From NCBI GenBank assembly GCA_047967505.1, contig CM106538.1: a stretch of DNA of 64,000 bases. One strand, given 5' to 3'. Shown piece after piece: positions 21,868 to 45,093 of the stretch (position 1 is its first letter; every line of letters starts with the position of its first letter). Made by a program: the position numbers and the translations under genes. This DNA is from Dipteris shenzhenensis. Its lineage: Eukaryota. The notes beneath the pieces are model-generated. The model worked only from the letters and a program-made list of their open reading frames with translations. It did no database searches and had not been told where the DNA came from.

Positions 21868-21884
21868 CCATTCTGCATGCCCTA

Positions 21885-24800
21885 ATGGCAGTTGAGCTCC
21901 CAAAAGTTGAACCTCCACAGTTGCATAACAGCAGACGATCCCGCAAGAAAGCTGCAGGAGGAAATCGCAGAAGAGCCAAGGCCGAGCACTTCAATGAATT
22001 CGAACGAGTCCGAACACGGATTGTGGAATTGTATCTTGCAAAGGCAGTCCCCTCAAAGTCAAAACCACCACCTCTTGAATGGTCCCCTGAAGGACTGGAA
22101 GGAATATGTGCAGCACATGAACCCTTACTTGGAAACACCTTGCCAGTGGAAAAGTTACCCCACAGTTCCCAACGTAAGAAGTTTCGGAAATATAAGCCAC
22201 ATGTGCGGATGAAGCTTGATCCAGAGACTTCAGAAAAAGAAAGGAAAGAAGAGCCTAACAAATTACTTAATGCAACTATGCCACCCAGTACTCATGACAC
22301 ATCTCAGGCTAGTTCAACCCCATCAGAGGCCGATCTTCGAGAAGTGCCGGAATACTTTAAGAATTATACAAGTGGCAGTGCACCAATAGCAATGCCAAGA
22401 CCAATCAGAGAATCTGAAGTTCAAGAAACCGATAGCATTGGAGAAACTCCAATCTATGAGGGACCGGCAAAAACACGCACAATAAACCTCGCCCTTGAAG
22501 GGGAGGAAGAAAAGTTAGTTTTCATTGGGAAACAGCTCCGTCAAGAAGATGAAAGCAAACTCAAAGAACTCCTAATGGAATACCGTGACTGCCTTGCATG
22601 GTCATACAAAGAGATGAAAGGAATTTCACCAGAAGTGGCAGTTCACACGATCCCTATAAGGGAAGGTGCTCGCCCTAAGGTATGTGGACCTTATCGCACA
22701 AATCCTAAATATGGCACCATGGTTTATGACGAGCTGGAAAAACTCCTAGATGCCGGATTCATCTACGAGATAGAGCACACTGATTGGGTTTCACCCATTG
22801 TCATTGTGCCTAAACGCAACAAGAAGCTCAGAATATGCGTAAACTTGAAAAATGTGAATGCCGCCACAATTAGGGATCACTACCCCCTACCCTTAACAGA
22901 AACAGTGTTGGAAAAGGTGGCAGGATCCGAAATCTACAGCTTCTTGGATGGCTTCAGTGGCTATAACCAGGTACAAATTGCTCCTCAAGACCAATCAAAA
23001 ACAGCATTTGCTATAGAATGGGGTATTTTTGCATATAGAGTCATGCCATTCGGCCTTTGTAATGCCCCGGCCACATTCCAGCGAGTCATGTTCACAGCTT
23101 TCAAGTCATTCTTGAATAAGTTTTTACAGGTGTTCTTGGATGATTTGTGCATCCATTCAACCAAACAGGACCACTTCAAATGTCTGGAAGAAGTACTAAT
23201 CAAATGCAGGGAGTATGGCATCTCCCTAAATCCAACAAAATGCCAGTTCATGGTCACCCACGGAGTTGTTTTAGGACACATCGTCTCTCAACATGGGATT
23301 GCAACTGACATGGACAAAATCAAAATCATCATGGAATTGCCTCCTCCTACAAATTCCAAAGGTGTACAGGTCTTTATGGGACATGCCGGCTATTATAGAA
23401 GATTTATATTGCGGTATGCCATGATAGCTAGACCACTTTACAAATTATTAGTGGAGTTCTTATGGACCGAAGAGTGCGACCAAGCCTTTGAGCTTTTAAA
23501 GTGGTGCCTAATCACAGCACCCATCCTTCTATCTCCCAATTGGGATATTGATTTTCATGTTCATACTGATGGATCCAAGTATGCAATTGGGAGTGTGCTT
23601 TGTCAACCTGGTGAACATAAGAAAGACTACCCAGTTTACTTCGCCAATCGACAACTCAATGATGCAGAGATCAACTATACAACCACAGAAAGAGAAGCCC
23701 TAGCAATGGTGTACAGTGTAAAGAAATTTCGGCACTATCTCCTTGCAAATGATTTTGTCTTCTACACCGACCATCAAGCATTGCTTTATCTTGTGAACCG
23801 TCCGTGTACCACAGGAAGAATAACCAGATGGCTCCTCTTGCTACAAGAATTCAACTTCAAAATTGTGGTCCGCAAAGGTGCCCAACACTACATTGCCGAT
23901 CACATGTCTCGAGTAAAGACAGGAGAAGAAGCCACTGGAGTAGAAGATGACTTACCAGATGCCACACTATTTCAAATAGATGCTGTTCCAGAATGGTGTG
24001 GAGATATCATTGGGTACTTGATGGCAGGAAGACCACCCCCTGACATGAAAGCAGTAGATGCCAGAAAATTGATTCTAAAGGCTGCACCATATCAACTCAT
24101 TGCAGGACAACTATACAAGATGGGCAAGGACCAGATATTAAGAAGATGTGTAATGCCTCATGAGATCCTGCCAATCCTGAGTGAAGTCCATGAAGGCATT
24201 GCAGGAGGACACTTCCAAGGGGAAGCCACAGCAAGAAAAGTTCTCCTCGCAGGCTACTGGTGGCCAACACTGTGGGCAGATGCCTATGAATTTGTGAAAG
24301 GCTGTGATGTATGCCAACGAACTATTAAACCACAACACAAAGACTTCAATCCCCTAACAACAGTTGTTGCACAACAGCCATTTGAAAAATGGGGGATTGA
24401 TTATGTGGGTCCCATACATCCAGCAGCAAAAGGAACACAGGCACGCTACATCATTGTGGCCACTGATTACTTTACAAAATGGGCTGAAGCTAAGGCAGTC
24501 AGAAAGGCAGATGCCAAAAGCACAGCAAGATTCTTGTACGAACATGTGATCACCCGATTCGGATGCCCCATTGAAATTGTGTCGGATAGAGGCACACATT
24601 TTGTCAATGAGGTAATCCAAGAACTCTTGTCTGGCTTCATGGTCATTCATAGAAAAAGCACACCCTACTACCCCCAAGGGAATGGATTAGCAGAATCCAC
24701 AAACAAAATCATATGCAATATCCTCACCAAGGTAGTAGAACCGCAGCGTTCTGATTGGGCAGAGAAACTGAACGCAGCCTTATGGGCATACAGAACCACA

Positions 24801-25244
24801 TTCAAGGTCAGTACAGGGAACACACCTTTTCAATTGGTGTACGGCCTTGAAGCCGTGGTCCCACTTGAATTTATAATACCAAGTCTGCGCATCGCAATAC
24901 AAGAACACATGGGTGATCATGAGTCCTTGAAAGAAAGGCTCTGTCAGTTGGAAAAGCATACAGAGACAAGACTAGTCGCTTATCATGCCATGACAACAGA
25001 AAAACGTCGAAGAAAGGCATGGTTTGACAGGAATCTAAAAGCTAAAGACATCAAGGAAGGCGACTTAGTCCTGTTATACAATGCCAAAGTACACAAGGGA
25101 AAACTGAAATATCTAGGTCAAGGACCCTACCGAGTACGCAAGATGAATCCCATTGGAGCTGTGCTACTTGAAACACTTGATGGAGTCCAATTCAACACAA
25201 CAATAAACGGGAGCCGACTGAAGCGCTACTACATCAACACGTGA
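21885..25244 (+). CDS. pol: Pol: RT, RNase H, integrase
   Basis: 1119 aa. WVSPIVIV, FLDGFSGYNQ, MPFGL, FLDD, HTDGS, H..GH...CDVC, WGIDYVGP, SDRGTHF, GPY. Confidence 0.96.
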   Translation: MAVELPKVEPPQLHNSRRSRKKAAGGNRRRAKAEHFNEFERVRTRIVELYLAKAVPSKSKPPPLEWSPEGLEGICAAHEPLLGNTLPVEKLPHSSQRKKFRKYKPHVRMKLDPETSEKERKEEPNKLLNATMPPSTHDTSQASSTPSEADLREVPEYFKNYTSGSAPIAMPRPIRESEVQETDSIGETPIYEGPAKTRTINLALEGEEEKLVFIGKQLRQEDESKLKELLMEYRDCLAWSYKEMKGISPEVAVHTIPIREGARPKVCGPYRTNPKYGTMVYDELEKLLDAGFIYEIEHTDWVSPIVIVPKRNKKLRICVNLKNVNAATIRDHYPLPLTETVLEKVAGSEIYSFLDGFSGYNQVQIAPQDQSKTAFAIEWGIFAYRVMPFGLCNAPATFQRVMFTAFKSFLNKFLQVFLDDLCIHSTKQDHFKCLEEVLIKCREYGISLNPTKCQFMVTHGVVLGHIVSQHGIATDMDKIKIIMELPPPTNSKGVQVFMGHAGYYRRFILRYAMIARPLYKLLVEFLWTEECDQAFELLKWCLITAPILLSPNWDIDFHVHTDGSKYAIGSVLCQPGEHKKDYPVYFANRQLNDAEINYTTTEREALAMVYSVKKFRHYLLANDFVFYTDHQALLYLVNRPCTTGRITRWLLLLQEFNFKIVVRKGAQHYIADHMSRVKTGEEATGVEDDLPDATLFQIDAVPEWCGDIIGYLMAGRPPPDMKAVDARKLILKAAPYQLIAGQLYKMGKDQILRRCVMPHEILPILSEVHEGIAGGHFQGEATARKVLLAGYWWPTLWADAYEFVKGCDVCQRTIKPQHKDFNPLTTVVAQQPFEKWGIDYVGPIHPAAKGTQARYIIVATDYFTKWAEAKAVRKADAKSTARFLYEHVITRFGCPIEIVSDRGTHFVNEVIQELLSGFMVIHRKSTPYYPQGNGLAESTNKIICNILTKVVEPQRSDWAEKLNAALWAYRTTFKVSTGNTPFQLVYGLEAVVPLEFIIPSLRIAIQEHMGDHESLKERLCQLEKHTETRLVAYHAMTTEKRRRKAWFDRNLKAKDIKEGDLVLLYNAKVHKGKLKYLGQGPYRVRKMNPIGAVLLETLDGVQFNTTINGSRLKRYYINT

Positions 25245-25765
25245 GCCATCCCCGACAAAAACGAAGATTTGGGAAACCAAGTCTTCCTTAGTTAGGATTA
25301 GATTGTATCACAAGCACTCACTCGCATATGCACGTTTTTGCACATATAGTTTGCACTAGATTGTTACACGCACACTCACTGCATATGCACGTTTTTTGCA
25401 CGTTAGGGATGTTTGCGTCTTAGTTTCCCTATCAAATCCCACAAATAAGCATATAGTTAGACACATCACATGCACTCACATGATTTTGCATAGGCACATA
25501 ATAGATTGCATAAAAAATAGTATCACACAGTTTCATTCCATACTCTCAAAGCATGCAATGAATTCACACGCAGTACACAAAGCTATGCCAAAACTCAAGA
25601 TGAATTGGCAACAGAGTCTGCAGCCTCCGCAACGAGACCCCCGCCAAACATCACAGCCGTCTCCTATATGCAAAAAATATCAAACTTGCATACTAATTAT
25701 CTACAAGCTCAATGCTACTGGTGCAATCGCATCCAACATGTATGCAAGATAGCAAGAAATGACAG

Positions 25766-26050
25766 CCTCCACAACGAGACCCCCGCCAAACCTCTTCCCA
25801 AGAAGATTCGACGGCAGCGTCCGCAACCTCAGCAACGAGATCCCCTCTGACATTCATAGTCATCTACCCCTCCTCAAGTGGAGATAAGCTTCTTGACCAA
25901 CATCCTTTTATACCAATCCTCCACAACGAGACCCCCGCTAAACCTCTTCCCAAGAAGATTCGATGGCAGCGTCCGCAACCTCAGCAACGAGATCCCCTCT
26001 GACATTCATAGTCATCTACCCCTCCTTAAGAGAAGATAAGTTTCTTGACT
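25766..26050 (+). repeat. ~152 bp period tandem duplication in the 3' region of copy 1
   Basis: CCTCCACAACGAGACCCCCG... starts at 25766 and 25918. Confidence 0.85.
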
Positions 26051-26190
26051 ATTGACTACACATTGTGTGGTGCAAAAGAATTACAGCAGGAACGACTCGC
26101 ATACCCACTGTATTACGCACATGGCATCTCAACTCTGAAATCAAAATAATCCATAACCCGAGGACGGGTAATAAAATGGATCCGGGAGTA

Positions 26191-27457
26191 TGTTGACTCT
26201 GTGCCAACATGAACTTATGAAGAAAGAGAAGGTGATACAACTTTGTGATACAACTTTGTGTTACAACTTTGTGTTACAACTTCTAGACACAACTTTATGT
26301 TACGACTTTATGTAACAACTTTGTGTTACAAGTTTGTGTTACAACTTCTACATGAAGAGAGAGAATGTGTTATGACTTTGTGACACAACTTTGTGTTACA
26401 ACTTTGTGTAACAACTTTGTGATACAACTTTGTGACACAACTTTGTGTTACAACTTTGTGTAACAACTTTGTGTTACAACTTCTACATGTAGAGAGAGAA
26501 AGTGATACAACTTTGTGTTACGACGTTGTGACACAACTTTGTGTTACAACTTTGTGATACAACTTTGTGTTACAACTTTGTGATACGACTTTGTGTTACA
26601 TGCAGAGAGAGAAGCTCTCCAACTTGTATAAATACCCCATAATGGAATGAAGCCCACACTCTTGGGGCATTGTGTTGAGTCTACATTGGTATTCCAAGCA
26701 TTTGTCTCAAGTGTCCATGCTTCCTTGCACTGCACGTCCAAAAGCATGTCCTAACCTTGCAACCCTTCTCCCCTCTCCTCCAACCCTGCAACCCATCCTC
26801 TCCCTCTCCTCCTCCCTTCTCCCCCCTCCTCCTCCTCCTCCTCCTCCTCCCTCCTCCTCCCTCCTCCTCCTCCTCCTCCTCCTCCCTCCTCCTCCTCCTC
26901 CTCTCTCCTCCCTCTCCCTCCTCCTCTTCCCTCCTCCTCCTTCCTCCTCTCTCTCTTACTTCACCCATGCTCTTACACCTTCTTCCTCTCCCACTCCTAT
27001 GCTTTCCTAAACCCTTAAACTCAATGATCTACGAGGGAGACGAGTTCTCCACCATGTATTTTACTCTGAACCTTGGATCCTCCTCCTAACCCTGAACTCC
27101 TTCTAAACCTTGGAACCTCCTTCTGAACCCTGGAACTCTTTCTAACCCTGAACTCTTTCTAAACCCTGGAACCTCCTTCTGAACCCTTAAACTCCTCCTA
27201 AACCCTACAACCCCCAATGAAGGCGAAAGCCTTCATTACCCCAACAACAATGGTTTACGTGCCTTTTACACATGCTTGCATTATGTTTACTCACCACACT
27301 TAAGCCTACGTCTCTCACCGGAACACGACTCGAGGTCCTAAGCTACACATATACTACAACGACAATCCCAATATATCTGTAGGTGACAAAAAGCCTCGGA
27401 ACACTGCAACATAGAGAACCCAGCTCTTCCTACGGAAGCGGTAGGAAAGAGCCAACA
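26191..27457 (+). repeat. 3' LTR (1267 bp)
   Basis: By eye it differs from the 5' LTR by one CCT unit and about two substitutions. Confidence 0.97.
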
Positions 27458-27462
27458 GGCAC

Positions 27463-30400
27463 CATTCTCCTATGATCACTGGAATACCCCTCCTATAATA
27501 TTAGGGTAAACAACTGTACCAAGGGAGAATGGTAGTGGTGCCAATCTCTTATTGGGCCCTAGAAAATGGCACTGAGAAGCCTAAACTCACATGCCATTCT
27601 TCTATGTTCCACCGGTGGAAAATGGCAATGGTGCCATTCTCTAAAACATGCACAAGGAATCCTAAACGCACATGTGCATTGGCACTTTTACCATTATCCT
27701 ACTACAGCCAATAAAATTAGTGGAATGTCAATCTATAGGTTTAGTTTGTCTAGATTACCACTAGTGGAGAATAGCAGTGATGCCAATCTCATGCAGGCAC
27801 CTACATAATGACACTAAGATCAACAAACTCACATGTGGATTGGAATCGGACACCATTCTCCTATGATCACTGGAATACCCCACCTAGAATAGTAGGGTAA
27901 ACATTTGTACAAGTGGAGAATGGCAGGGTGCCAATCTATTATTAGGCCCTAGAAAATGGCATTGAGAAGCCTAAACTCACATGTGCAAGCTTCTCAATGC
28001 CATTTTCTAGGGCCTAATAAGAGATTGGCACCACTGGAGAATGGATTTCTGTCAATCTCTGTGGAGAATGCCACCAGTGGAGAATGGCAGTGGTGCCAAT
28101 CTCATACCAAGACGTTAAAAATGGCACAAGGAATCCTAAACTCACATGTGCATTGGCACTTTTGCCATTATGCTACTGCAGCCAATAAAATTTGTGGACT
28201 GTCAATCTACAAGTTTAGTTTATCTAGATTGCCACCAGTGGAGAATTGAAGTGATGCCAATCTCATGCAGGCAACCACATAATGACACTGAGATCCTCAA
28301 ACTCACATGTGGATTGGAATCGGGCACCATTCTCCTATGATCCTTGGAATACCCCTCCTAGAATATTACGGTAAACATTTGTACAAGCGGAGAATGGCAG
28401 TGGTGCCAATCTCTTATTAGGCCCTAGAAAATGGCACTGTGAAGCCTAAACTCACATGTGCAGCCAATAAAATTAGTAGAATGTCAATCTATAGTTTAGT
28501 TTGTCTAGATTACCACTAGTGGAGAAGCCTAAACTCACATGTGCATTCTTCTATGTAGTGATCACCGTCTCCACTGTGTAGATATCATATGGAATTGTGT
28601 CAATCTCTATGGAGAATGGCAGTAGTGCCAATCTCATACTATGACCTGAAAACATGCACAAGGAATCCTAAACTCACATGTGCATCAGCACTACCACTAG
28701 TGGAGAATGGCAATGATGCCAATCTCATGCTGGCAACTACATAATGACAATGAGATCACCAAATTCACATGTGCATTGAAACTTTTGCCATTATCCTACT
28801 GCAGCCAATAAAATTAGTGGAATGTCAATCTACAGGTTTAGTTTGTCTTGATTACCACTAGTGGAGAATGGCAGTGATGCCAATCTCATGCTGGCAACTA
28901 CATAATGACACTGAGATCATCAAACTCACATGTGGAATGGAATCTGACACCACTCTCCTATGATCACTGGAATACCCCTCCTAGAATAGTACGGTAAACA
29001 TTTGTACAAGTGGAGAATGGCAGTGGTGCCAATCTCTTATTAGGCCTTAGAAAATGGCATTGAGAAGCCTAAACTCACATGTGCATTCTTCCATGTAGTG
29101 ATCACAGTCTCCGCTGTGTAGAGATCATATGGAATTGTGTCAATCTCTGTGGAGAATGCCACCAGTGGAGAATGGCAGTGGTGCCAATCTCACATGTGGA
29201 ATACCCCTATGATCCTTGGAATACCCCTCCTAGAATATTAGGGTAAACATTTGTACAAGTGGAGAATGTCAATGGTGCCAATCTCTTATTAGGCCCTAGA
29301 AAATTGCACTGTCAAGCCTAAACTCACATGTGCATCCAATAAAATAAGTGGAATGTTAATCTATAGGTTTAGTTTGTCTAGACTACCAATAGTGGAGAAA
29401 GGGAGTGATGCCAAACTCATGCTGGCACCTACATAATGACACTGAGATCATCAAACTCACATGTGGATTTGAATCGGACACCACTCTCCCATGATCACTG
29501 GAATACCCCTCCTAGAATAGTAGGGTAAACATCTGTACAAGTGGAGAATGGTAGTGGTGCCAATCTCTTATAAGGCCCTAAGAAATGGCATTGGGAAGCC
29601 TAAACTCACATGTGCATTCTTCTATGTAGTGATGACCTGAAAACATGCACAAGGAATCCTAAACTCACATGTGCATTGGCACTTTTGCCATTCTCTGCTA
29701 GTGGTAATGTGCATTCTTCTATGTAGTGATCACTGTCTCCGCTATGTAGAGATCATATAGAATTGTGTCAATCTCTGTGCAGAATGCCACCAATGGAGAA
29801 TGGTAGTGGTTCCAATCCCATACCATGACTTGAAAACATGCACAAGGAATCCTAAACTCACATGTGCATTGGCACTATTGCCATTATCCTACTGTAGCCA
29901 ATAAAATTAGTGGAATGTCAATCTATAGGTTTAGTTTGTCTAGATTACCACTAGCAGAGAATGGTAGTGATGCCAAACTGATGCTGGCCCTAAGAAATGG
30001 CATTGAGAATCATAAACTCACATGTGCATTCTTCTATGTACTAATCCCTGTCTCCGTTGTGTAGAGATCATATGGAATTGTATCAATCTCTTATTAGGCC
30101 CTGGAATGGCAATCTATAGGTTTAGTTTGTTTAGACTACCACTAGTGGAGAATGGCAGTGATGCCAAACTCATGCTGGCACCTACATAATGACACTAAGA
30201 TCATCAAACTCACATGTGGATTGGAATCGGACACCACTCTCCTATGATCACTGGAATACCCCTCCTAGAAAAGTAGGGTAAACATTTGTACAAGTGGAGA
30301 ATGGCAGTGGTGCCAATCTCTTATTAGGCCCTAAGAAATGGCATTGAGAAGCCTAAACTCACATGTGCATTCTTCTATGTATTGATCACTGTCTCCACTG

Positions 30401-33400
30401 TGTAAAGATCATATGGAATTGTGTCAATCTCTGTGAAGAATGCCACTAGTGGAGAATGGCAGTGGTGCCAATCTGATACCATGACCTGAAAACATGCACA
30501 AGGAATCCTAAACTCACATGTGCATTGGCACTTTTTCCATTATCCTACTGTAGCCAATAAAATTAGTGGAATGTCAATCTATAGGTTCAGCTTGTCTAGA
30601 TTACCACGAGCGGAGAATGGAAGTGATGCCAATATCATGCTTGCAACTACATAATGACACTTAGATCATCAAACTCACCTGTGGAATGGAATAGGACACC
30701 ACTCTCCTATGATCATTGGAATACCCCCCCTAGAATAGTAGGGTAAACATTTGTACAAGTGGAGAATGACATGTGCAGAGATCTTTTGGATTTGTGTCAA
30801 TCTCTATGGAGCATGCCACCAGTGCAAAATGGCAGTGGTGCCAATCTCATACCATGACGTGAAAACATGCACTTTTGCCATTATCCTACTGCAGCCAATA
30901 AAATTAGTGGAATGTCAATCTATAGGTTTAGTTTGTCTAGATTACCACTAGCAGAGAATGGCAGTGATGCCAAACTCATGCTGGCCCTAATAAATGGCAT
31001 TGGGAATCCTAAACTCACATGTGCATTCTTCTATGTTGATCACTGTCTCTGCTGTGTAGAGATCATGTGTAGAGATCATATGGAATTGTGTCAATCTCTT
31101 ATTAGGCCCTGGAATGTCAATCTATAGGTTTAGTTTGTTTAGACTACCACTAGTGGAGAATGGCAGTGATGCCAAACTCATGCTGGCACCTACATAATGA
31201 CACTGAGATCATCAAACTCAAATGTGGATTGGAATCGGACACCACTCTCTTATTATCACTGGAATACCCCTCCTAGAAGAGTATGGTAAACAATTGTACA
31301 AGTGGAGAATGGCAGTGGTGCCAATCTCTTATTAGGCCCTAAGAAATGGCATTGAGAAGCCTAAACTCACATGTGCATTCTTCTATGTAGTGATCACTGT
31401 CTCCGTTGTGTAGAGATCATATGGAATTGTGTCAATCTCTACGGAGAATGCCACCAGTGGAGAATGGAAGTGGTGCCAATCTTATACCATGACCTGAAAA
31501 CATGCACAAGGAATTCTAAACTCACATGTGCATTGGCACTTTTGCCATTATCCTACTACAGCCAATAAAATTAGTGGAATGTCAATCTATAGGTTCAGTT
31601 TGTCTAGATTACCACTAGCAGAGAATGGCAATGATGCCAATCTCATGCTGGCAACTACATAATGACACTGAGATCATGAAACTCACATGTGGAATGGAAT
31701 AGGACCCACTCTCCTATGATCACTGGAATACCCCTCCTAGAATAGTAGGGTAAACATTTGTACAAGTGGAGAATGGCAGTGGTGCCAATCTCTTATTAGG
31801 CCCTAAGAAATGGCATTGAGAAGCCTAAACTCACATGTGCAGAGATCATATGGATTTGTGTCAATATCTGTGGAGAATGCCACCAGTGGAGAATGGCAGT
31901 GGTGCCAATCTCATACCATGACCTGAAAACATGCACAAGGAATCCTAAACTCACATGTGCATTCTTCTATGTAGTGATCACTGTCTGTGCTATGTAGAGA
32001 TCATATGGAATTGTGTCAATCTCTGTGGAGAATGCCACCAGTGGAGAATGGAAGTGGTGCCAATCTCATACCATGACCTGAAAACATGTACAAGGAATCC
32101 TAAACTCACATGTGCATTCTTCTATGTAGTATCATTGTCTCCGCTATGTAGAGATCATATGGAATTGTGTCAATCTCTGTGTAGAATGCCACCAGTGGAG
32201 AATGGTAGTGGTTCCAAGCTCATACCTTGACCTGAAAACATGCACAAGGAATCCTAAACTCACATGTGCATTCTTCTATGTAGTGATCACTGTCTCTACT
32301 GTGTAGAGATCATATGGAATCCTAAACTCACATTTGGATTGGAATCGGACACCACTCTCCTATGATCACTGGAAAACCCCTCCTAGAATAGTAGGGTAAA
32401 CATTTGTACAAGTGGAGAAAGGCAGTGGTGCTAATCTCTTATTAGGCCCTAAGAAATGGCATTGAGAAGCCTAAACTCACATGTGCATTCTTCTATGTAG
32501 TGATCACTATCTCCGCTGTGTAGAGATCATATGGAATTGTGTCAATCTCTGTGGAGAATCCCACCAGTGGAGAATGGTAGTGGTGCCAATCTCATACCAT
32601 GACGTGAAAACATGCACAAGGAATCCTAAGCTCACATGTGCATTCTTCTATGTAGTGATCACTGTCTCCGCTGTGTAGAGATCATATGGAATTGTGTCAA
32701 TCTCTGAGATCATCAAACTCACATGTGGATTGGAATCGGACACCACTCTCCTATGATCACTAGAATACCCCTTGTAGAATAGTAGGGTAAACATTTGTAC
32801 AAGTGGAGAATGGTAGTGGTGCCAATCTCATACCATGACCTAAAAACTTGCACAAGGAATCCTAAACTCACATGTGCATTGGCACTTTTGCCATTATCCT
32901 ACTGCAGCCAATAAAATTAGTGGAATGTCAATCTATAGGTTTAGTTTGTCTAGATTAACACCAGTGGAGAATGGCAATGATGCCAATCTCATGCTGGCAA
33001 CTACATAATGACATTGAGATCATCAAACTCATATGTGGAATGGAATAGGACACCACTCTCCTATGATCATTGGAATACCCCTCCTAGAATAGTAGGGTAA
33101 ACATATGTACAACTGGAGAATGGCAATGGTGCCAATCTCTTATTAGGCCCTAAGAAATGGCATTGAGAAGCCTAAACTCACATGTGTAGAGATCATATGG
33201 ATTTGTGTCAATCTCTGTGGAGAATGCCACCAGTGGAGAATGGCAGTGGTGCCAATCTCATACCATGACCTGAAAACATGCACAAGGAATCCTAAACTCA
33301 CATGTGCATTCTTCTATGTAGTGATCAACTGTCTCTGCTGTGTAGAGATCATATGGAATTGTGTCAATCTCTGTGGAGAATGCCACCAATGGAGAATGGC

Positions 33401-36400
33401 AGTGGTACCAATCTCATATCATGACCTGAAAACATGCACAAGGAATCCTAAACTCACATGTGCATTCTTCTATGTAGTGATCACTGTCTCCGCTGTGTAG
33501 AGATCATATGGAATTGTGTCAATCTCTGATATCATCAAACTCACATGTGGATTCGAATCGGACACCACTCTCCTTTGATCACTGGAATACCCCTCCTAGA
33601 ATAGTAGGGTAAACGGTTGTACAAGTTGAGAATGGCAGTGGTGCCAATCTCTTATTAGGCCCTAAGAAATGGCATTGAGAAGCCTAAACTCACATGTGCA
33701 TTCTTCTATGTAGTGATCACTGTCTCCGCTATGTAGAGATCATATGGAATTGTGTCAATCTTTGTGGAGAATGCCACCAGTGGAGAATGGCAGTTGTGCC
33801 AATCTCATACCATGACCTGAAAGCATGCACAAGGAATCCTAAACTCACATGTGCATTTGCACTTTTGCCATTATCCTACTGTAGCCAATAAAATTAGTGG
33901 AATGTCAATCTATAGGTTTGTCTAGATTACCACTAGTGGAGAATGGCAGTGATGCCAATCTCATGCTAGCAACTACATAATGTCACTGAGATCATAAAAC
34001 TCACATGTGGAATGGAATCAAACAACACTCTCCTATGATCATTGGAATACCCCTCCTAGAATAGTAGGGTAAACATTTGTACAAGTGGAGAATGGCAGTG
34101 GTGCCAATCTCTTATTAGGCCCTAAGAAATGGCATTGAGAAGCCTAAACTCACATGTGCATTCTTCTATGTATTCTCCACAGAGATTGACACAAATCTCT
34201 GTGGAGAATGGCACTGGTGCCAATCTCATACCATGACCTGAAAACATGCACAAGGAATCCTAAAATCACATGTGCATTGGCACTTTTGCCATTATCCTAC
34301 TGCAGCCAATAAAATTAGTGGAATGTCAATCTATAGGTTCAGTTTGTCTAGATTACCACTAGCGGAGAATGGCAGTGATGCCCATCTCATGCTGGCAACT
34401 ACATAATTACACTGAGATCATCAAACTCACATGTGGAATGGAATAGGACACCACTCTCCTATGATCATTGGAATACCCCTCCTAGAATAGTAGGGTAAAC
34501 ATTTGTACAAGTGGAGAATGGCAATGGTGCCAATCTCTTCTTAGGCCCTAAGAAATGGCATTGAGAAGCCTAAACTCACATGTGCATTCTTGTATGTAGT
34601 GATTATTGTCTCCGATGTGTAGAGATCATATGGAATTGTGTCAATATCTGTGGAGAATGGTAGTGGTGCCAATCTCATACCATGACCTGAAAACATGCAC
34701 AAGGAATCCTAAAATCACATGTGCATTGGCACTTTTTCCATTATCCTACTGCAGCCAATAAAATTAGTGGAATGTCAATCTATAGGTTCAGTTTGTCTAG
34801 ATTACCACTAGCGGAGAATGGCAGTGATGCCAATATCATGCTGGCAACTACATAATTACACTGAGATCATCAAACTCACATGTGGAATGGAATAGTACAC
34901 CACTCTCCTATGATCATTGGAATACCCCTCTTAGAATAGTAGGGTAAACATTTGTACAAGTGGAGAATGGCAGTGGTGCCAATCTCTTATTAGGCCCTAA
35001 GAAATGGCATTGAGAAGTCTAAACTCACATGCGCAAAGATCATATGGATTTGTGTCAATCTCTGTGGAGAATGCCACCAGTGGAGAATGGCAGTGGTGCC
35101 AATCTCATACCATGACCTGAAAACATGCACAAGGAATCCTAAACTCACATGTGCATTCTTCTATGTAGTGATCACTGTCTCCGCTGTGTAGAGAGCATAT
35201 GGAATTGTGTCAATCTCTGTGGAGAATGCCACCAGTGGGGAATGGTAGTGGTGCCAATCTCATACAATGACCTAAAAACATGCACAAGGAATCCTAAACT
35301 CACATGTGCATTCTTCTATGTAGTGATCACTGTCTCCGTTGTGTAGAGATCATATGGAATTGTGTCAATCTCTGTGGAGAATGCCACCAGTGGAGAATGG
35401 TAGTGGTGCCAATCTCATACCATGACCTGAAAACATGCACAAGGAATCCTAAACTCACATGTGCATTCTTCTATGTAGTGATCACTGTCTCCGCTGTGTA
35501 GAGATCATATGGAATTGTGTCAATCTCTGTGGAGAATGCCACCAGTGGAGAATGGTAGTGGTGCCAATCTCATACCATGACCTGAAAACATGCACAAGGA
35601 ATCCTAAACTCACATGTGCATTCTTCTATGTAGTGATCACTCTCTCCGCTGTGTAGAGATCATATGGAATTGTGTCAATCTCTATGGAGAATGCCACCAG
35701 TGGAGAATGGTAGTGGTGCCAATATCATACCATGACCTGAAAACATGCACAAGGAATCCTAAACTCACATGTGCATTCTTCTATGTAGTGATCACTGTCT
35801 CCGCTGTGTAGCGATCATATGGAACTGTGGCAATCTCTGAGATCATCAAACTCACATGTGGAATGGAATCGAATACCACTCTCCTATGATCACTGGAATA
35901 CCCCTCCTAGAATAGTAGGGTAAACATTTGTACAAGTGGAGAACGGCAGTGGTGCCAATCTCTTATTAGGCCCTAAGAAATGGCATTGAGAATCCTAAAC
36001 TCACATGTGCATTCTTCTATATAGTGATCACTGTCTCCGCTGTGTAGAGATCATAGGGAATTGTGTCAATCTCTATGGAGAATGCCAATAAAATTAGACT
36101 ACCACTAGTGGGGAATGGCGGTGATGCCAATCTCATGCTGGCAATTATGTAATGACATTGAGATCATCAAACTCACATTTGGATTGGAATCGGACACCAC
36201 TCTCCTATGATCACTGGAGTACCCCTCCTAGACTAGTACGGTAAACATCAATCTATAGGTTTAGTTTGTCTAGATTACCACTAGCGGAGAATGGCAGTGA
36301 TGCCAAACTCATGCTGGCCCTAAGAAATGGCATTGAGAATCCTAAACTCACATGTGCATTCTTCTATGTAGTGATTACTATCTCCGGTGTGTAGAGATCA

Positions 36401-39400
36401 TATGGAATTGTTTCAATCTCTTATTAGGCCCTGGAATGTCAATCTATAGGTTTAGTTTGTCTAGACTACCACTAGTGGGGAATGGCAGTGATGCGAATCT
36501 CATGCTGGCAACTATATAATGACATTGAGATCATCAAACTCACATTTGGATTTGAATCGGACACCACTCTCCTATGATCACTGCAATACCATTCCTAGAA
36601 TATAGGGTAAGCATTTGGACAAGTGGAGAATGGCAGTGGTGCCAATCTCATAATAGGCCCTAGAAAATGGCATTGAGAAGCCTAAACTCACATGTGCATT
36701 CTTCTATGTAGTGATCACTGTCTCCATTGTGTAGAGATCATATGGAATTGTGTCAATCTCTGTGGAGAATGCCACTAGTAGAGAATGGCAGTGGTGCTAA
36801 TCTCATACCATGACCTGAAAACATGCACAAGGAATCCTAAACTCACATGTGCATTGGCACTTTTGCCATTATCCTACTGTAACCAATAAAATTAGTGGAA
36901 TGTCAATCTATAGGTTTAGTTTGTCTAGATTACCACTAGCAGAGAATGGTCGTGATGCAATCTCATGCTTGACCTAAGAAATGGCATTGAGAATCCTAAA
37001 CTCACATGTGCATTCTTCTATGTAGGGATCATTGTCTCCGCTATGTAGAGATCGTATGGAATTGTGTCAATCTCTCTATTAGGCCCTGGAATGTCAATCT
37101 ATAGGTTTAGTTTGTCGAGACTACCGCTAGTGGGGAATGGCACTAATGCCAATCTCATGATGGCAACTATATAATGACATTGAGATCATCAAACTCACAT
37201 TTGGATTGGAATCAGACACCACTCTCCTATGATCACTAGAATACCCCTCCTAGAATAGTAGGGTAAACATTTGTACAAGTGGAGAATGGCAGTAGTGCCA
37301 ATCTCTTATTAGGCCCTAATAAATGGCATTGAGAAACCTAAACTCACATGTGCATTCTTCTATGTAGTGATCACTGTCTCCACTGTGTAGAGATCATATG
37401 GAATTGTGTCAATCTCTGTGGAGAATGCCACCAATGGAGAATGGCAGTGGTGCCAATCTTATACCATGACTGAAAATATGCACAAGGAATCCTAAACTCA
37501 CATGTGCATTGGCACTTTTGCCATTATCCTAGTTTCATTCTCCGCTAGTGGTAATGTGCATTCTTCTATGTAGTGATCACTGTCTCCGATGTGTACAGAT
37601 CATGTGGAATTGTGTCAATCTCTGAGGAGAATGCCAACAGTGGAGAATGGATGCGGTGCCAATCTCATACCATGACCTGAAAACATGCACAAGGAATCCT
37701 AATCTCACATGTGCATTCTTCTATGTAGTGATCACTGTCTCCGCTATGTAGAGATCATATGGAATTGTGTCAATCTCTGTGTAGAATGCCACCAATGGAG
37801 AATGGTGGTGGTGCCAATCTCATACCATGAGCTGAAAACATGCACAAGGAATCCTAAACTCACATGTGCATTCTTCTATGTAGTGATCAGTGTCTCCGAT
37901 GTGTAGAGATCATATGGAATTGTGTCAATCTCTGAGATCATCAAACTCACATGTGGAATGGAATAGGACACCACTCTCCTATGATCACTGGAACCCCATT
38001 AGAATAGTAGGGTAAACATTTGTACAAGTGGAGAATGGCAGTGGTGCCAATCTCTTATTAGGCCCTAAGAAATGGCATTGAGAACCCTAAACTCACATGT
38101 GCAGAGATCATATGGATTTGTGTCAATCTCTGTGGAGGAGAATGGCAGTGGTGCCAATCTCATATCATGACCTGAAAACATGCATAAAGAATCCTAAACT
38201 CAAATGTGTATTCTTCTATGTAGTGATCAGTCTCTCTGCTGTGTAGAGATCATATGGAATTGTGTCAATCTCTGTGTAGAATGCCACTAGTGGAGAATGG
38301 TAGTGGTGCCAATCTCATACCATGACCTGAAAACATGCACAAGGAATCCTAAACTCACATGTGCATTCTTCTATGTAGTGATCACTGTCTCCGTTGTGTA
38401 GAGATCATATGGAATTGTGTCAATCTCTGAGATCATCAAACTCACATGTGGAATGGAATAGGACACCACTCTCCTATGATCACTGGAACCCCTCCTAGAA
38501 TAGTAGGGTAAACATTTGTACAAGTAGAGAATGGCAGTGGTGCAAATCTCTTATTAGGCCCTAAGAAATGGCATTGAGAACCCTAAACTCACATGTGCAG
38601 AGATCATATGGATTTGTGTCAATCTCTATGGAGGAGAATGGCGGTGGTGCCAATCTCATACCATGACCTGAAAACATACACAAGGAATCCTAAACTCAAA
38701 TGTGCATTCTTCTATGTAGTCATCACTATCTCCACTATGTAGAGATCATACGGAATTGTGTCAATCTCTCTGGAGAATGCCACCAGTGGAGAATGGCAGT
38801 GGTGCCAATCTCATACCATGACCTAAAAACATGCACAAGGAATCCTAAACTCACATTTGCATTGGCACTTTTTCCATTATCCTACTGCAGCCAATAAAAT
38901 TAGTGGAATGTCAATCTATAGGTTTAGTTTGTCTAGATTACCACTAGCAGAGAATGGCAGTGATGCCAATCTCATGCTGGCCCTAATAAATGGCATTTGA
39001 GAAGCCTAAACTCACATATGCATTCTTCTATGTAGTGATCACTGTCTCCGTTGTGTAGATATCATATGGAATTTTGTCAATCTCTGTGGATAATGGCAGT
39101 GGTGCCAATCTCATACCATGACCTGAAAACATGCACAAGGAATTCTAAACTCACATGTGCATTGGCACTTTTGCTATTATCGTACTGCAGCCAATAAAAT
39201 TAGTGGAATGTCTAGACTACCACTAGTGGAGAATGGCAGTGATGCCAATCTCATGCTGGAACCTACATAATCTTCCTGAGATCATCAAACTCACAAGTGG
39301 ATTGGAATTGGACACCACTCTCCTAGAATACCCGAGGGTAAACATTTGTACAAGTAGAGAATGGCAGTGGTGCTAGTCTCTTATTAGGCCCTAGAAAATG

Positions 39401-39435
39401 GCATTGAGAAGCCTAAACTCACATGTGCATTCTTA
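27463..39435 (+). repeat. ~12 kb complex satellite of three ~150-160 bp monomers in shuffled order (starts ~14850, before the nested LTR element)
   Basis: Each monomer ends in AAACTCACATGTG and contains GGAGAATGGCAGT(G/A)(G/A)TGCCAATCTC. Exact 155 bp spacing at 35149/35304/35459/35614. Confidence 0.95.
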
Positions 39436-39938
39436 TTAGCATCAGTGCCCTTCTCTAGAAGGTCAGGTGAGAAAACTCTCATGTGATAACCTTCATATAA
39501 GGAGAATGGCACTGGTGCCATTCTCTGATTCTCTACAATCCATGTGATGAATCGAACTTCTACCATTCTCCTTAACATCATGGAGGATGGCACCAATGGC
39601 ATTATCCTCAAACTCTCATGGAGGATGGCACTTGTGCCATTCTAAACAAACTCACAATCCATGTGTTCAATGGCATTTGTGACACTCTTCTAACATCATA
39701 TTATGTTGGAGAATGGCACGAATACCATTCTTTATTATAACCATCTTAACTTTGGTATTGTATATATTTTCTTACTGTGTTGGTGTAGTTTTTCATAATG
39801 CATATATAAGTTGCTTCGCCTTGGTTATTTTGTTAATGGAAGTTGCATTGTGGTTGTAATATTTCCTACTACAGTTATGATTTTCTATTATACATTTCAT
39901 TGTGTCCTTAGTTCTTTTGTTAACAGAACATTGCAAGA

Positions 39939-42916
39939 ATGGCTAGCAAGGGAAAGAGAAAGGTTCGAGAGGTGTCAGTTTATGATGGAGTTAGCTCTGG
40001 AAGAGGATGGTTTTTGGATATATACAATAACGAGCTCCAAAAACTCCATAAAGTGCATTGTTTTGTGAACATCCAAGGAACAACTTTTGAAGATGTTGGA
40101 CAAGTTAAAGAGATGGAGGATACCGAGAAAGACAACGTTCCTTGTCTCAAAATTCATACATTGGGAGGCAATGTGTATCAATTGGATCCTGCTTGTTTTG
40201 ATCATGCGAGGATGAATGCTAATGGGGAGGACACGATGATATCTAGGGGTTGGATTAATGAGCCAGAAAATTATACCAACCAACAGATATTAGAAAGCTT
40301 TGATTTGGTAACAAAAGGGATAAAGCAAGATATAAAAAAGAGTAGAAAAGTTTCGAAAGAACCAAGAAAAGTGATGTTGAGGGATCAAGCTCTCAAGTGT
40401 CTCAAAACACATTGAAAGAGAAGGCTAGAGAGACCGGTGAGGAGGAAACAATAGGTAAGAAGGAAATAAGGTCAGATGGAAAAACAAGCATTGGGGATAA
40501 ACTGGAGGCTAAAGACAAAGAGACAACTTTAGGAGGAAAATAGGGAGGTATGGGAATAGTCACTGATGGAACTGGAAGTGGAGGTGATGCAACGGGGAGT
40601 AGTGAGACACATGTAACAGGACAAATCATCTGAAGCAACTATCATCCTGTATAAGAAAATCCAGCCAGATGTTGACTTTAAGGCACTACAAAAGAAATTG
40701 GAAAGGAAGGACACAAGTATGACAGGCTTGATGGAGTACATAGAGTACTTCCCATTTGGTTTGGAGTTTGAGGTGTTGATTCCAGTGATGAACTGCTTTA
40801 GAGCACCAAGCCAATATGTGTACAGGACATTGACCCTCAGCTATGTCAGTGACTTGGTCAAGAGTTTTGCAATGAATGCACGACCTCCTGCAACATGTGC
40901 ATATCTTATGCCTTACCACACAGGCACAAATACTCCGATGTGCAAGGAAGAGATAAAGGTGGAAAATTTAAAGGAGTATAATTATTGGATTCTCGTAGGG
41001 CAACATTCGATTTATGCTGCAAGGATGTTTATAACTAAAGCACATGGAGAAGCCTTCAATCAACAAAAAGGTTTCTATACACGGAGGAAGGCAAGAATTA
41101 TTGTGTCAATGCACCAGTTGAAGCAAGTTGTAACATATCATCAATGGCCAACATGGAGGCACAGACCGTTTTGAAAAATCAACCATATATCGATATCTTA
41201 CAACACCTAAGGGCACAGTGGATTGCATTCGGATGACCAAAGAAACTAGCCCAAGGCCTTGTCAAAGGGCATAAAGATCGACAAAGTTGGGATGTGAGTA
41301 ATAAACTTTGTTTTGTATGCATTTTTATTTCAAGAATGTTTATGGCTTTGTAAAAGAAATGATAGTAGTGTCAATTCCCTGATGTGAGAATGGCACTAGT
41401 GCCATTCTTCTAGTTACCAAGTCATGCTTTTGACATGGTAATGGGAGAATCGCACTAGTGACATTATTATCTCTATTACATGATTTGGATTAGAAGAATG
41501 TCTAAGATGATTTTGATTTTTTTATATAGAATTCTATAGGAGTTGCAAGCGTATCGATGGGCGCAAAATTTGCTACCAAGGACACACACATGGTTACATA
41601 TGATGATGACATCTACGAACAATGGATTAGGATTTTGACATTGGTGAAGCAGGGTGATCTTGAGGGTCAAAATCCCACAATAACATATATGAGGTGTCTG
41701 CTAGGATTGGAAGACGAAGATGTATGTGCACTTCAAGCAGAGATTGAGTCTAAAGAAATAGTCTTAGTCAAGTCAAGCAAAGACAAGGACTCCATTGAAA
41801 TGTCTCAACGGGCAATGGAGATTAAGCATGATAGAGCCCTGAAAGAAGCGCTCATCAAGGAGTTCAACTCACGTCACCATTTGCCCCAACATCAAACATG
41901 GGATGCCCTTGCAACTTACTTTAAAATTGATCCAATTGTTTATCAGAGCTTCAAGGGTTCATGTGAGTCATGGGTCAAAGAGAAGCTACAAGTTGGCAAG
42001 TCCACACCTGATTTCCCAGAAGCCGCGTCAATCTATGTTGATTGGGTGATTAGTTCAATAGAGGGTAACAAGTCTACATCACAGTCTTGTTTTCCTTGGA
42101 CAATTATTCAAGTGAACATGGAGATGGAGAGGGAGAGCTTTCTAACATGTCACTCCAAGGCTTGACACCTCAGAGGGATCTGCCAAAGGCATGTGTTGGG
42201 ATAAGGATGCCTTCAAGAAGTTGCTCTGTGGCTTGATGGAGACCGTTGCCACTCCGTCACAGAATGTATTGCTATCATTTATGACAATGATAGAGATGGT
42301 AAATCTCAAGGAAGCTATGATAGAGGCTCGATTTTGGCATAGAAGGTTTGTGGGTGTTATCCATGAATCGGATAGTGCACAAAAGGGTTTGTGTGAGACC
42401 TTCTGTTTTTTGTCATTTATCAGCTCACATGATGGGTTTGATGGATTTGAGCACATGTTAGAAAACACAAGGCCATACACAATAATTGAGGACAATATTC
42501 TTTATTCTGATGAGGACGATGAGTATGAAAAAGAGGCGGTTGTGAAGCATGGCATCATCAAGGAGTGCATCAGGTGCTATTGTAGTAGGGAACATGAAGT
42601 TGTTGTTGACGTCTTTACTAATGGATGTGTGGCATTACAAGCATTGTCAAGCAAAAGAAAAGTGATCTCACTAGTGAAGACATCCCAACAGGCGATAGAG
42701 GTCGAGGCTATGTGTGTGGCACATGCATCAAATAATCCCCATATTAAGATTTGGTCTAGCATTGAGAGGCCTCTTGAGACACATAGAGCTGATTCACCTA
42801 TCGATGAAGGAATTAAAGAGGGTGAGCATCACATTGAAGACTTGCGACCTTTAACTGAAGCAGATCTTAATGCTATCCCAAAGATTACATTGGAAGATTT
42901 GGAGCAAGGTCTTTAG
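39939..42916 (+). pseudogene. Cargo gene 1: ParB/Srx-like domain plus degenerate N6/N4 DNA-methylase-like C-terminus; intron ~41294-41529
   Basis: YWILVGQHSIYAA resembles the ParB GxHR motif. The GTGAGT donor and TATATAG acceptor give an in-frame WD|NSIG join. C-terminal YEKE..IKECIRCYCSREHEVVVDVFTNGCVALQALSSKRKVISL resembles beta-class MTase motif X/I. Contains stops and frameshifts. Confidence 0.55.
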
Positions 42917-43735
42917 CTACTCATTTATGCCTTGTGTATTTAGTTTCAAAATAATATGACTTTTAAGGATTTTCTCGATTGCACATACTCTCATTATATT
43001 AAAGAGATTAAACATTAGGTATGATAAAATTGTGTGACATAATGACATGGGGAATGGTACTAGTGTCATTCTCCCTATGTCGGGTTATATGTAAGAGGTA
43101 CTATTAACATTTTATGTGACCTCATATGGAAAATGGCACTAGTGCCATTCTCTCTTTGTGGTTATGTAGAAATGGTAATACTGTTATGTTCCTTTCTTGA
43201 ATCTATGTTAGTTGAAAGCATTACAGAGATTAAAAATTGTATAGTATTAACTATGCTACCAAAGTTTGGATTTGGATGCTTTCCACAAATCTATTGGACC
43301 AAAGTAATACAATATCTATGCTTTTAGATCATGCATTGTACATTTCTTTTGGGACATGGGGGGAGGCACTAGTAGTATTCTCTCCTCCCAATGAGGATAT
43401 AGAGAAAGGCACTAGTGGCATTCTCCATAACCTTATATGTAAAATGGCACTAGCACCACCCCAAGAGAAGAATGGCACTAGTGCCATTTTCTCTATGAGT
43501 TCAGAGAGAAAGGTTGCACTATTTGCACTCAATTGCCCTTTAGAGAGATTGGCACCAGTGCCATTCCCCAAAAAGATAATGGAATCAGTGAACGGCGATG
43601 AATAATGTTCGTACTTTATTTTTATTTATTAGTTTCATATGATTTTGTGCTTCGACATTGTTGAATACACTCTAAAGAATCAAAATATTTCTATATTCCT
43701 CAACTTCCACAGGGACCAATGATGTATGGAAGGAT

Positions 43736-45002: not shown

Positions 45003-45093
45003 AGGTACATATGTCAAAGTGTTTTTTAATTTTATCTCAAGTCTATATAACTGTTGTTGCAACTAATTGAATTTGTCTTTTGTGATGTAGATA

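Follow-up and report, generated by a model that had tools for sequence, protein, structure and literature searches.

Introduction

A close described counterpart of the locus considered here is the VANDAL/VANC system of Arabidopsis. There, VANC binds introns, intergenic DNA, and non-coding terminal sequence by way of short motifs, which are amplified as tandem repeats and differ between related families (PMC5735166). The fern element resembles VANDAL in having a family-specific short motif in its non-coding parts, tandem amplification of this motif with differences between related families, an extra gene beside the transposase, and repeats that are also methylation targets (PMC5735166, PMC10398659). 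However, VANDAL elements are Mutator-like, whereas the fern element belongs to the DUF7869 superfamily and no Mutator-type transposase was found in it; the VANC motifs are non-palindromic and 8-9 bp long, in contrast to the palindromes of 18-26 bp found here; the fern element holds a single 12-kb array; and its cargo protein, compared through Pfam profiles and not directly with VANC sequences, has no VANC match and combines methyltransferase-like and NIF-like folds.

Sola transposons, reported as abundant in Azolla (PMC6786969), are comparable in other respects. Measured against the definition of Sola in PMC10741241, the fern element is similar in the DDD-type triad candidates and RNase-H/integrase core fold of its transposase family and in its short terminal inverted repeats (TIRs); the 4-bp target duplication of Sola is one of three readings here, and the Sola TIR range of 11-1124 bp accommodates the ~30 bp of this element without being diagnostic. 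Nevertheless, Sola elements mostly measure 2-9 kb, with some above 15 kb (PMC10741241), against ~30 kb here without the nested LTR element, and the fern element is distinguished by a large cargo gene and an internal array. A literature search with few subscription papers found no paper on a Sola transposon with TIRs in a fern and no description of a DUF7869 transposon of such size that carries a conserved cargo gene.

Tandem arrays are common inside transposons (PMC9659126). What satellites within transposons do is rarely known. In Ogre/PisTR-A, En/Spm ENSAT1, CRM1TR, and the Helentron CgHINE, the array is internal to the mobile element and dispersed with it (PMC9659126), and Tetris and CficCl-61-40 likewise have a tandem array within a mobile element that is dispersed along with its carrier. 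The present array differs from these in its three diverged monomers, which form a 465-bp cycle on an element-wide palindrome, and in having a counterpart in a related element, where the array is built on another palindrome. Moreover, Spm TnpA and the AtMu1 transposase are reported to regulate the copies of their own elements in a sequence-specific manner (bioRxiv 10.64898/2026.08.24.746577). Both belong to superfamilies other than DUF7869; by analogy, the transposase of the fern element could itself be a reader of the internal motifs.

The Carrier Element and Its Transposase

The window, a DNA stretch of 64,000 nucleotides from a host genome that is probably fern-like, contains a large DNA transposon within which the array resides (Table 1). 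That the array is carried inside a transposon, as the first-pass annotation had proposed, is borne out by the ends of the element, its target duplication, and the split RT gene, since the frame of the host Gypsy RT breaks off at ~4021 and picks up again at ~46538. The element measures 42.5 kb as assembled, ~30 kb once the nested LTR element is subtracted, and ~18 kb when the array is also left out. Its ends lie at 4022-4024 and 46535-46537, depending on how the target duplication is read (2, 4, or 6 bp, all in the same register of one insertion). The TIRs match at 22 of 30 positions, as do 1e-5 of random pairs, with the ends set independently by the split RT gene, and a degenerate copy of the 16-bp subterminal palindrome is found at 46272. 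An Rfam scan of the whole window gave 0 matches.

Table 1. Coordinates of the features of the element and its array within the window.
Feature	Position	Strand	Remarks
Large cut-and-paste DNA transposon	4023..46536	.	Split RT gene, inverted ends, target duplication
Left terminal inverted repeat	4022..4051	+	Imperfect, ~30 bp
16-bp subterminal palindrome, three copies	4279..4363	.	Shared with two related loci, L001 and L002, where it is conserved
Broken DUF7869 transposase gene	4549..7881	-	At least 3 frame changes, several stops
Four copies of the 26-bp palindrome	7971..8371	.	Upstream of the transposase
Palindrome cluster	9489..10690	.	~65-bp period, contains the mini-array
Captured LRR receptor-kinase-like gene fragment	12990..13860	+	Stop and frameshift
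Two 364-bp tandem units	14062..14794	+	3 palindrome copies in each
Left array remnant	14870..14982	+	Diverged; part of B and start of C
Nested Ty3/Gypsy LTR element	14983..27457	+	Young, intact-looking; inside first C monomer
Main array	27458..39435	+	A(155)-B(161)-C(149) cycle of 465 bp; also A-runs, deletions, block duplications, inverted inserts
Five palindrome copies	39501..39733	.	Between array and cargo gene
Broken, spliced cargo gene	39939..45002	+	Collinear with Adiantum nelumboides MCO5596946.1 (1125 aa)
Right terminal inverted repeat	46508..46537	-	Imperfect, ~30 bp

The nested Gypsy element was considered as the carrier of the array and rejected, since it sits within a C monomer with its own 5-bp target duplication and contains neither anchor nor palindrome. 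Its LTRs (14983-16246 and 26191-27457) differ at 2 of 1264 bases and by one 3-bp gap.

The transposase, which in intact relatives is ~1,075-1,100 aa long, shows 9 stops in the window when aligned to P0175. Its Pfam match is DUF7869 alone, with no match to a MULE family. The model of the relative P0138 has the Mos1/Metnase/integrase core fold (Z 8.0-8.5), matching Mos1 (Z 8.3, rmsd 3.4, 164 aligned) as well as Metnase and integrases, and Mos1 is also its top Foldseek match (E 5.6e-3); on the basis of this relative, the transposase is predicted to have a DDE fold with an RNase-H core. The transposase model further includes a helix-turn-helix region and Tudor/PWWP/BAH-like barrels (Z 5.6-6.8). 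The acids invariant or nearly so in 54 sequences are D529, D670, and E709/D710/D712 (P0138 numbering), the last three being candidates for the third acid, and D529, D670, and D710 are the DDD-type triad candidates. The transposase is probably Sola-like, and its QLDNC and GHTHED motifs presumably resemble those of Sola.

Architecture and Decay of the Array

The three monomers and two shared anchors of the first-pass annotation are present where they had been placed. Consensus lengths are 155 bp for A, 161 bp for B, and 149 bp for C, which are 60-65% alike in global alignment and have in common anchor Q, the 13-bp AAACTCACATGTG motif, and anchor P, 25 bp that open with GGAGAATGGCAGT. The P-to-Q distance is fixed in 66 of 73 cases, and the three P-Q spacers are merely 50-59% alike between monomers. 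Exact Q is not clustered by chance, because it reaches 2-6 copies per kb in 27-39.4 kb, whereas the rest of the window has just 4, all of them in the left remnant or in a mini-array (9980-10420, 440 bp) that is made up of B/C/A pieces and is 95% identical to the main array consensus. The annotated location (27463..39435) was accurate, except that the true start is 27458 and that a remnant lies beyond the nested LTR element.

Viterbi painting against the consensus trimer decomposed the array into 33.9 A, 19.2 B, and 24.4 C monomer equivalents at 95.7% identity to the consensus, in 73 segments with 72 jumps. The 20 adjacent unbroken monomer pairs are exclusively BC (7), CA (6), AA (5), and AB (2), and blocks of 500-870 bp are duplicated at 93-97% identity. 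The array is therefore a cyclic A-B-C trimer with A-runs and inherited rearrangements; the B-C-A cycles and A-runs annotated earlier exist, but the order is not freely combinatorial. Chimeras had also been thought to switch at the anchors. This is true of 5 junction types out of 38, which account for 23 of 72 events (the A-to-A junction for 15 of these), whereas the remaining 33 types are deletions or switches away from the anchors. Four short inverted inserts of 21-50 bp are found among the junctions. Microhomology of at least 3 bases accompanies 16 of 38 junction types, against 6% by chance, when measured against the consensus, and of at least 4 bases 9 of 39 when measured against single reference copies.

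Array units differ by 6-8% pairwise, with the minimum mid-array and the maximum at the edges, and none of 334 full-monomer pairs is identical. The first-pass view of a satellite being born from, or spread by, the element stands insofar as the array appears to derive from the element palindrome and probably spreads with the element, but its youth was overstated, because the divergence of its units, none of them identical, exceeds the ~2% by which contigs of another run differ from the present copy of the element. CG and CHG transitions in the array amount to 12-13%, against 1-2%, and CpG o/e is 0.13; judged from these substitutions, the array carries heavy methylation scars and would therefore not have been kept unmethylated.

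The Element Palindrome and Related Elements

The element contains 114 palindrome-like 26-mers with at most 7 mismatches; its flanks and the nested LTR element, 33,959 bp together, contain none. The 36 copies outside the array are grouped in 6 clusters, and all lie outside the coding blocks (7,005 bp of 18,063 bp), an avoidance that becomes borderline (~0.05) if 6 clusters instead of 36 sites are counted; seven of the copies occupy non-coding gaps of the cargo gene (41385-41470 and 43049-43570). Anchor P is a degenerate form of this palindrome, which points to the array as a derivative of the element's own palindrome. No P copy in the array is a perfect palindrome, each having at least 3 mismatches, so that the high-copy platform for the palindrome that had been suggested would carry degenerate copies only. 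An exact-pattern scan of metagenome contigs for the palindrome or P motif gave 0 matches.

The related element L001 has an intact 1,070-codon transposase frame with 53% identity to the window transposase and, upstream of it, a row in which a different palindrome, of 18 bp, recurs 10 times. The copies are 97-145 bp apart, with 6 of the 9 intervals at 138-145 bp (~141 bp); shuffles yield at most 2 copies. The window palindrome is absent from L001 and the L001 palindrome from the window element, whereas the 16-bp subterminal palindrome is common to the window element, L001, and L002. Across these related elements, end sites thus appear to be conserved and internal sites family-specific, and the palindrome rows in both elements suggest that transposons of this kind tag themselves for recognition by the proteins they encode. 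A row was found at 1 of the 23 loci examined; ~845 bp upstream of the L003 transposase frame contain none, and L002 and L004 offered less than 200 bp for this check. Local alignment gave no homology of the L001 row to A, B, or C (p 0.05, 0.17, and 0.69, respectively), and the L001 spacers are 52.5% alike, against 48.7% when shuffled. By eye only, the second motif of the L001 row resembles Q.

Origin and Possible Role of the Array

The history that very probably underlies the array begins with one 26-bp palindrome that came to stud the non-coding DNA of the element. A unit of palindrome, 34-bp spacer, and Q would have been triplicated long ago, as we infer because the anchors are shared and the spacer length is fixed, and its copies would have diverged into A, B, and C with the anchors retained. 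The 465-bp trimer would then have been amplified through unequal exchange and block duplication: A-runs could stem from out-of-register exchange at 20-bp Q homology, end-joining or template switches at 3-10-bp microhomologies could have caused the deletions and short inverted inserts, and later duplications would have copied both. The element seems to have moved with its array, the present copy landing in a Gypsy RT gene, decaying under methylation, and being hit by the young Gypsy element.

As to function, the palindrome might be the binding site of a dimeric protein encoded by the element, be it the transposase or the cargo protein. Its arrays, which lie between these two divergent genes, could serve element activation or escape from silencing, like VANC repeats. 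The chances that the palindrome is a binding site of an element-encoded protein seem evenly balanced, and lower that each extra array copy matters. By analogy with VANDAL/VANC, the reading slightly favoured here is that the array represents an amplified block of putative element-specific protein-binding sites that spread with the element. Because the repeat goes back to a defined motif, present in every non-coding part of the element and altered between related elements, the pairing of proteins with palindromes is open to a direct test. A positive outcome would mean that sequence-specific self-regulation arose independently a second time in plant transposons, and would offer a selective reason for satellite birth. 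Moreover, a very large DUF7869 transposon bears on fern genome growth. A bolder and rather doubtful extension is that ferns hold a giant Sola-like transposon family whose self-recognition evolved apart from VANDAL/VANC, with a subfamily-specific palindrome, a spacing of 140-160 bp (about one nucleosome), and a reader protein of dead methyltransferase-like and phosphatase-like folds that would keep the element active or tethered, selection for more sites turning it into a satellite factory.

A neutral runaway, though not the likeliest account, deserves weight: the palindromes would have, or have had, a role as dispersed sites, the 12-kb array being a functionless, carried expansion of a breakage-prone, microhomology-rich stretch. 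At non-methylatable sites, P in the array is conserved no better than the spacers (96.5% vs 96.3%), many amplified junctions break the spacing or lose P (32 of 81 Q-to-Q intervals fall outside 140-165 bp), and both the methylation decay and the end-joining-type scars are in line with such expansion, as is the commonness of arrays in transposons noted above (PMC9659126). However, the anchors and the spacer length of 34 bp persisted while the spacer sequences diverged, and L001 shows a row of comparable spacing with a wording of its own, both of which speak against a neutral runaway.

Public sequence runs bear on the other alternatives. Two of the six runs listed match the window, at 0.25 and 0.19 of its words; all four runs compared are contigs, whose depth does not equal copy number, and X1 may come from the same plant as the assembly. 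X3 covers 13 of 30 bins, and X5 does not cover the window. The contigs of two studies include both the array and the cargo gene, plus four odd window junctions; none spans the gap between these two (~39436-39762). The joint at 29177, single in the window array, has a depth of 13.6 in X1 (cargo contigs, 5.9-19.6), and an inverted insert present twice has a depth of 8.9 in X2 (cargo contigs, 2.9-6.0). Summed over two array bins, array depth is only about 3-5 times that of the deepest cargo bin in X1 and 5-12 times in X2, a lower bound given that contigs fragment on repeats. The element probably spreads together with its array.

Plant centromeric satellites have monomers of ~155-180 bp, and the first-pass annotation had taken the 155-bp unit as centromere-like and nucleosome-sized. 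A centromeric or nucleosome-positioning satellite is improbable here: the likeness is one of length only (149-161 bp, and ~141 bp in L001), whereas the array lacks 10-bp WW periodicity (p 0.27-0.98), has irregular anchor spacing with just 49 of 81 intervals at 140-165 bp, is short (12 kb) and lies within a mobile element, and exceeds the deepest cargo bin only by the above lower-bound factors. For Azolla and Salvinia, tandem repeats of 185-195 bp have been screened for putative centromere repeats (PMC6786969), so that such repeats have at least been considered for ferns. Capture or insertion of an unrelated genomic satellite in a single element copy would agree with the uptake of host DNA seen in the LRR fragment and with the missing contig link between array and cargo gene; nevertheless, it is quite improbable, as anchor P is the element's palindrome, present too in the non-coding gaps of the cargo gene, a mini-array lies in another palindrome cluster, and the once-per-array joint has cargo-like depth. 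That the array is an assembly artefact of collapsed or shuffled repeats, the case that the first-pass annotation had itself named as refuting, is scarcely credible, because contigs of two public studies share its odd junctions, and the lack of identical monomer pairs and the divergence rising from mid-array to the edges argue against it as well.

The Cargo Gene

The named relatives of the cargo gene are in the fern Adiantum, and fern annotations list them as hypothetical proteins. The encoded protein comprises, in order, an N-terminal part without assignment, a helical, a SAM-methyltransferase-like, and a NIF/HAD-like domain, and a small C-terminal helical domain; NIF is the only Pfam match of the protein and its relatives, and neither VANC nor another known DNA-binding family was matched in Pfam or PHROGs. 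In the NIF/HAD-like domain, DLNG replaces DxDxT. In both lists of structural matches, nearly all entries for residues 626-767 of the P0241 model are methyltransferases (Z at most 7.0, best E 1.9e-3), which hints at a class I SAM-methyltransferase fold, and most of the cargo model falls below pLDDT 50. Among the rows listed, the methyltransferase-like domain has no DPPY-type catalytic motif, as expected of an active N6-adenine DNA methyltransferase, LD instead being followed by variable residues, and we infer that the LD-bearing strand corresponds to motif IV.

A SET-like reading of 45051-45440 was set aside, with no Pfam match. The part encoded by 40632-41171 has a motif likeness that we take to be to ParB; this identity was not adopted, no sequence match being found in Pfam, PHROGs, or the PDB. 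In the model, this part has pLDDT under 50, no longer homologue of it was found, and a literature search gave no paper connecting DUF3723 with ParB. The ESM Atlas returned no match for P0241 and, for the part encoded by 40632-41171, a sub-threshold recognition that serves as a lead only, namely fungal clusters at 0.94-0.95, one of them with DUF3723 in 14% of its members.

Structure and history of the array

The array is genuine, its origin as an assembly artefact being unlikely, and constitutes a rearranged 465-bp higher-order repeat. It lies where the first-pass annotation had located it and is built of the three monomers with common anchors described there, A of 155 bp, B of 161 bp, and C of 149 bp. 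In all three, the 13-bp anchor Q is followed by a head (83 bp in A, 89 bp in B, and 77 bp in C), the 25-bp anchor P, and a tail of 34 bp. The monomers are 60-65% alike overall, and the likeness of their tails (50-59%; shuffle p = 0.002, 0.008, and 0.07) and heads (p = 0.016, 0.036, and 0.51) fits descent from a single old unit. Painted with a consensus trimer, 27458-39440 resolves into 73 segments at 95.7% identity, equivalent to 33.9 copies of A, 19.2 of B, and 24.4 of C. Its 44 unbroken monomers differ pairwise by 6-8%, no two being identical among 334 pairs, and divergence is 5-7% at the edges versus 3% in mid-array.

The default order is A-B-C-A, and the 20 pairs of unbroken neighbours are exclusively BC, CA, AA, or AB. 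This order and the pattern of jumps therefore indicate a higher-order repeat without free combination, so that the order previously termed combinatorial is rather a rearranged cycle. Painting yielded 72 jumps of 38 types, whose positions vary with the penalties chosen. The commonest (15 events) sets two A monomers head to tail via 20 bp of homology including Q. Chimeras that switch at the anchors, as formerly proposed, are real for five types (23 events by our count), in which the homology is anchor-derived, and do not account for the other 33. Further recurrent types (5, 5, 4, and 4 events) show just 1-3 bases of homology; their recurrence reflects the duplication of larger blocks, of 490-870 bp and 93-97% identity. 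Moreover, microhomology of at least 3 bases occurs in 16 of the 38 types (expected, 6%), and four inverted inserts of 21-50 bp were copied from nearby array sequence. Unequal exchange with end-joining or template switching is expected to leave such scars, and the array could have been rearranged in this way.

The carrier transposon and its cargo

The claim that the array lies within a transposon was borne out, since it is flanked by inverted ends and a target duplication in a split Gypsy RT gene. This gene is interrupted near 4021 and continues near 46538 at adjoining codons; the inverted ends at the break points agree at 22 of 30 positions (as do 1e-5 of random pairs), and the target duplication can be read as 2, 4, or 6 bp. 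The adjoining LTR element at 14983-27457, whose two LTRs show 2 differences in 1264 bases, was rejected as the carrier: it sits in a C monomer with a 5-bp target duplication and an array remnant to its left.

Features of the window apart from the array
Feature	Position	Strand	Remarks
Older Gypsy element, RT gene split by the DNA transposon	1-4021 and 46538-~48640		
DUF7869 transposase gene	7881-4549	leftward	Pfam E 2e-45
(TG)38 microsatellite	10719-10794		With the next feature, possibly one more nested or captured segment
AT-rich 31/53-bp tandem repeats	10976-11721		Includes a 186-bp, 70% direct repeat
LRR receptor-kinase-like ectodomain fragment in the element	12990-13860		Probable gene capture; no kinase part; stop and frameshift
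Gypsy LTR tandem repeat, 13 bp	15024-15392, 26232-26600, 51478-51698		~28 copies, 135-bp higher-order period; long C-rich tracts follow in the 5' region
Spliced, broken cargo gene	39939-45002		Collinear, 28-40%, with Adiantum nelumboides MCO5596946.1
Cargo segment	40632-41171		Presumably ParB-like in look and motif; fungal clusters are nearest in the ESM Atlas, with DUF3723 in 14% of the members of one; likeness below recognition threshold
Short frames past the cargo stop	45051-45600		SET-like by eye; no Pfam match; region has indels in contigs of runs X1 and X2 at 45427 and 45515
Two Copia pol remnants and a Copia-type gag	49078-50921 and 62827-63663	minus	Strand given for the pol remnants; gag on the plus strand
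Second copy of the nested Gypsy family	51437-~59080		Sits within a remnant of Copia pol; likeness to 14983-27457 is 92.7% for the LTR and 95% for the pol region; window self-comparison shows no second LTR; 27 consecutive T at 59082
496-codon frame after the second Gypsy copy	59170-60660		No Pfam match

Against intact relatives of 1,074-1,100 aa, the transposase is collinear (37-55%) but carries frame changes and nine stops; its closest named relative, from the liverwort Riccia, is 35% alike. A predicted model of a relative (mean pLDDT 73) matches the Mos1, Metnase, and integrase cores at Z 7-8.5 and, at middling Z of 5.6-6.8, also contains Tudor/PWWP-like and BAH-like barrels and a helix-turn-helix region. 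The carrier is likely a Sola member, a family that we take its transposase motifs to resemble. Published accounts characterise Sola elements as DDD transposons, mostly 2-9 kb long, with duplications of 4 bp (PMC10741241), as scarce among active plant elements (PMC12973397), and as abundant in Azolla (PMC6786969). No account of either the present large, cargo-bearing element or its palindromes turned up in the mostly open-access literature searched.

All named relatives of the cargo protein, in the 10 clusters examined, are from the fern Adiantum nelumboides, so that the host, too, is probably a fern. The predicted model of the cargo protein (mean pLDDT 50) is confident in parts only and resembles SAM-dependent methyltransferases at residues 626-767; a NIF-like domain is also present (E 7e-17). 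Both folds are probably enzymatically dead, because the former part lacks a DPPY-type motif and DLNG stands at the catalytic motif of the latter.

The 26-bp palindrome and related elements

With up to 7 mismatches allowed, the 26-bp palindrome has 24 copies in the left part of the carrier, 78 in the array, and 12 in the right part, but none in the 33,959 bp outside the carrier or in the nested LTR element. The 36 copies beyond the array form six clusters, one of which contains a 440-bp mini-array (9980-10420), and the coding blocks contain none. Anchor P is a degenerate form of this palindrome, departing from a perfect one by at least 3 mismatches (hairpin -7.6 versus -11.2 kcal/mol). Of 73 distances from P to Q, 66 are identical.

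Related elements turned up at 23 loci when metagenome contigs were scanned, four of these loci being close (47-62%). One of these, L001, has an intact transposase frame of 1,070 codons, and upstream of it a different, 18-bp palindrome stands in a row of 10 copies (maximum in shuffles, 2) at intervals of 115, 142, 138, 145, 141, 143, 120, 97, and 141 bp. The other 22 loci showed no such row; among them, L003 has about 845 bp upstream, whereas L002 and L004 offer too little DNA in that region. Each of the two palindromes is absent from the element that carries the other, and a 16-bp subterminal palindrome is common to the window, L001, and L002. Homology of the L001 row to the monomers is not demonstrable. 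At 526-1725 of L001, a second short motif follows each palindrome by 12-20 bp; it resembles the reverse complement of Q by eye, a likeness that statistics do not support.

Possible role of the array

Tandem arrays within transposons are well known (PMC9659126). The carrier resembles the Arabidopsis VANDAL elements, whose VANC protein counteracts silencing, as described in PMC5735166 and PMC10398659, in its family-specific motif, the non-coding placement and tandem amplification of this motif, and an extra gene. It nevertheless falls outside that system: its transposase is not of the Mutator type, and no match between the cargo protein and VANC was found in Pfam or PHROGs; a transposase itself is reported to be able to act as such a regulator (bioRxiv 10.64898/2026.08.24.746577). 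Transitions affect 14 of 110 CG and 84 of 710 CHG sites in the array versus 82 of 4,274 CHH and 84 of 6,767 A/T sites, and CpG o/e is 0.13, a record that speaks for heavy methylation in the past. A protective role is disfavoured because of this methylation, yet VANC targets are likewise described as methylation targets (PMC10398659). The main rival explanation is that a stretch which had formerly been useful expanded neutrally into the array; P is no better conserved within the array than the surrounding sequence. The earlier centromere-like, nucleosome-sized reading, to which only monomer length points, is improbable, 10-bp periodicity being absent and monomer spacing irregular.

The family in other samples

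Part of the stretch occurs in two of the six runs listed, which come from two studies. Region 38990-46400 was compared in 30 bins with contigs of four public runs; coverage was thin in X3 and nil in X5. In X1, just 1.95 Mb of contigs cover 28 of the 30 bins, a result that suggests that the family is repeated. The two longest X1 contigs differ by about 2% from the window, mainly through A in place of G or T in place of C in the window, and have indels at three of the frame changes of the window (41102, 42159, and 44160). Four junctions of the window array recur in loose ends and joints of X1 and X2; no contig in the runs compared bridges array and cargo. A joint found once in the window array has a depth of 13.6 in X1, within the range of the cargo contigs (5.9-19.6), a hint that each element has about one array, although contig depth is no copy number. 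Since the units differ from each other more than the window copy does from the X1 contigs, the history of the array would mostly be older than the present insertion.
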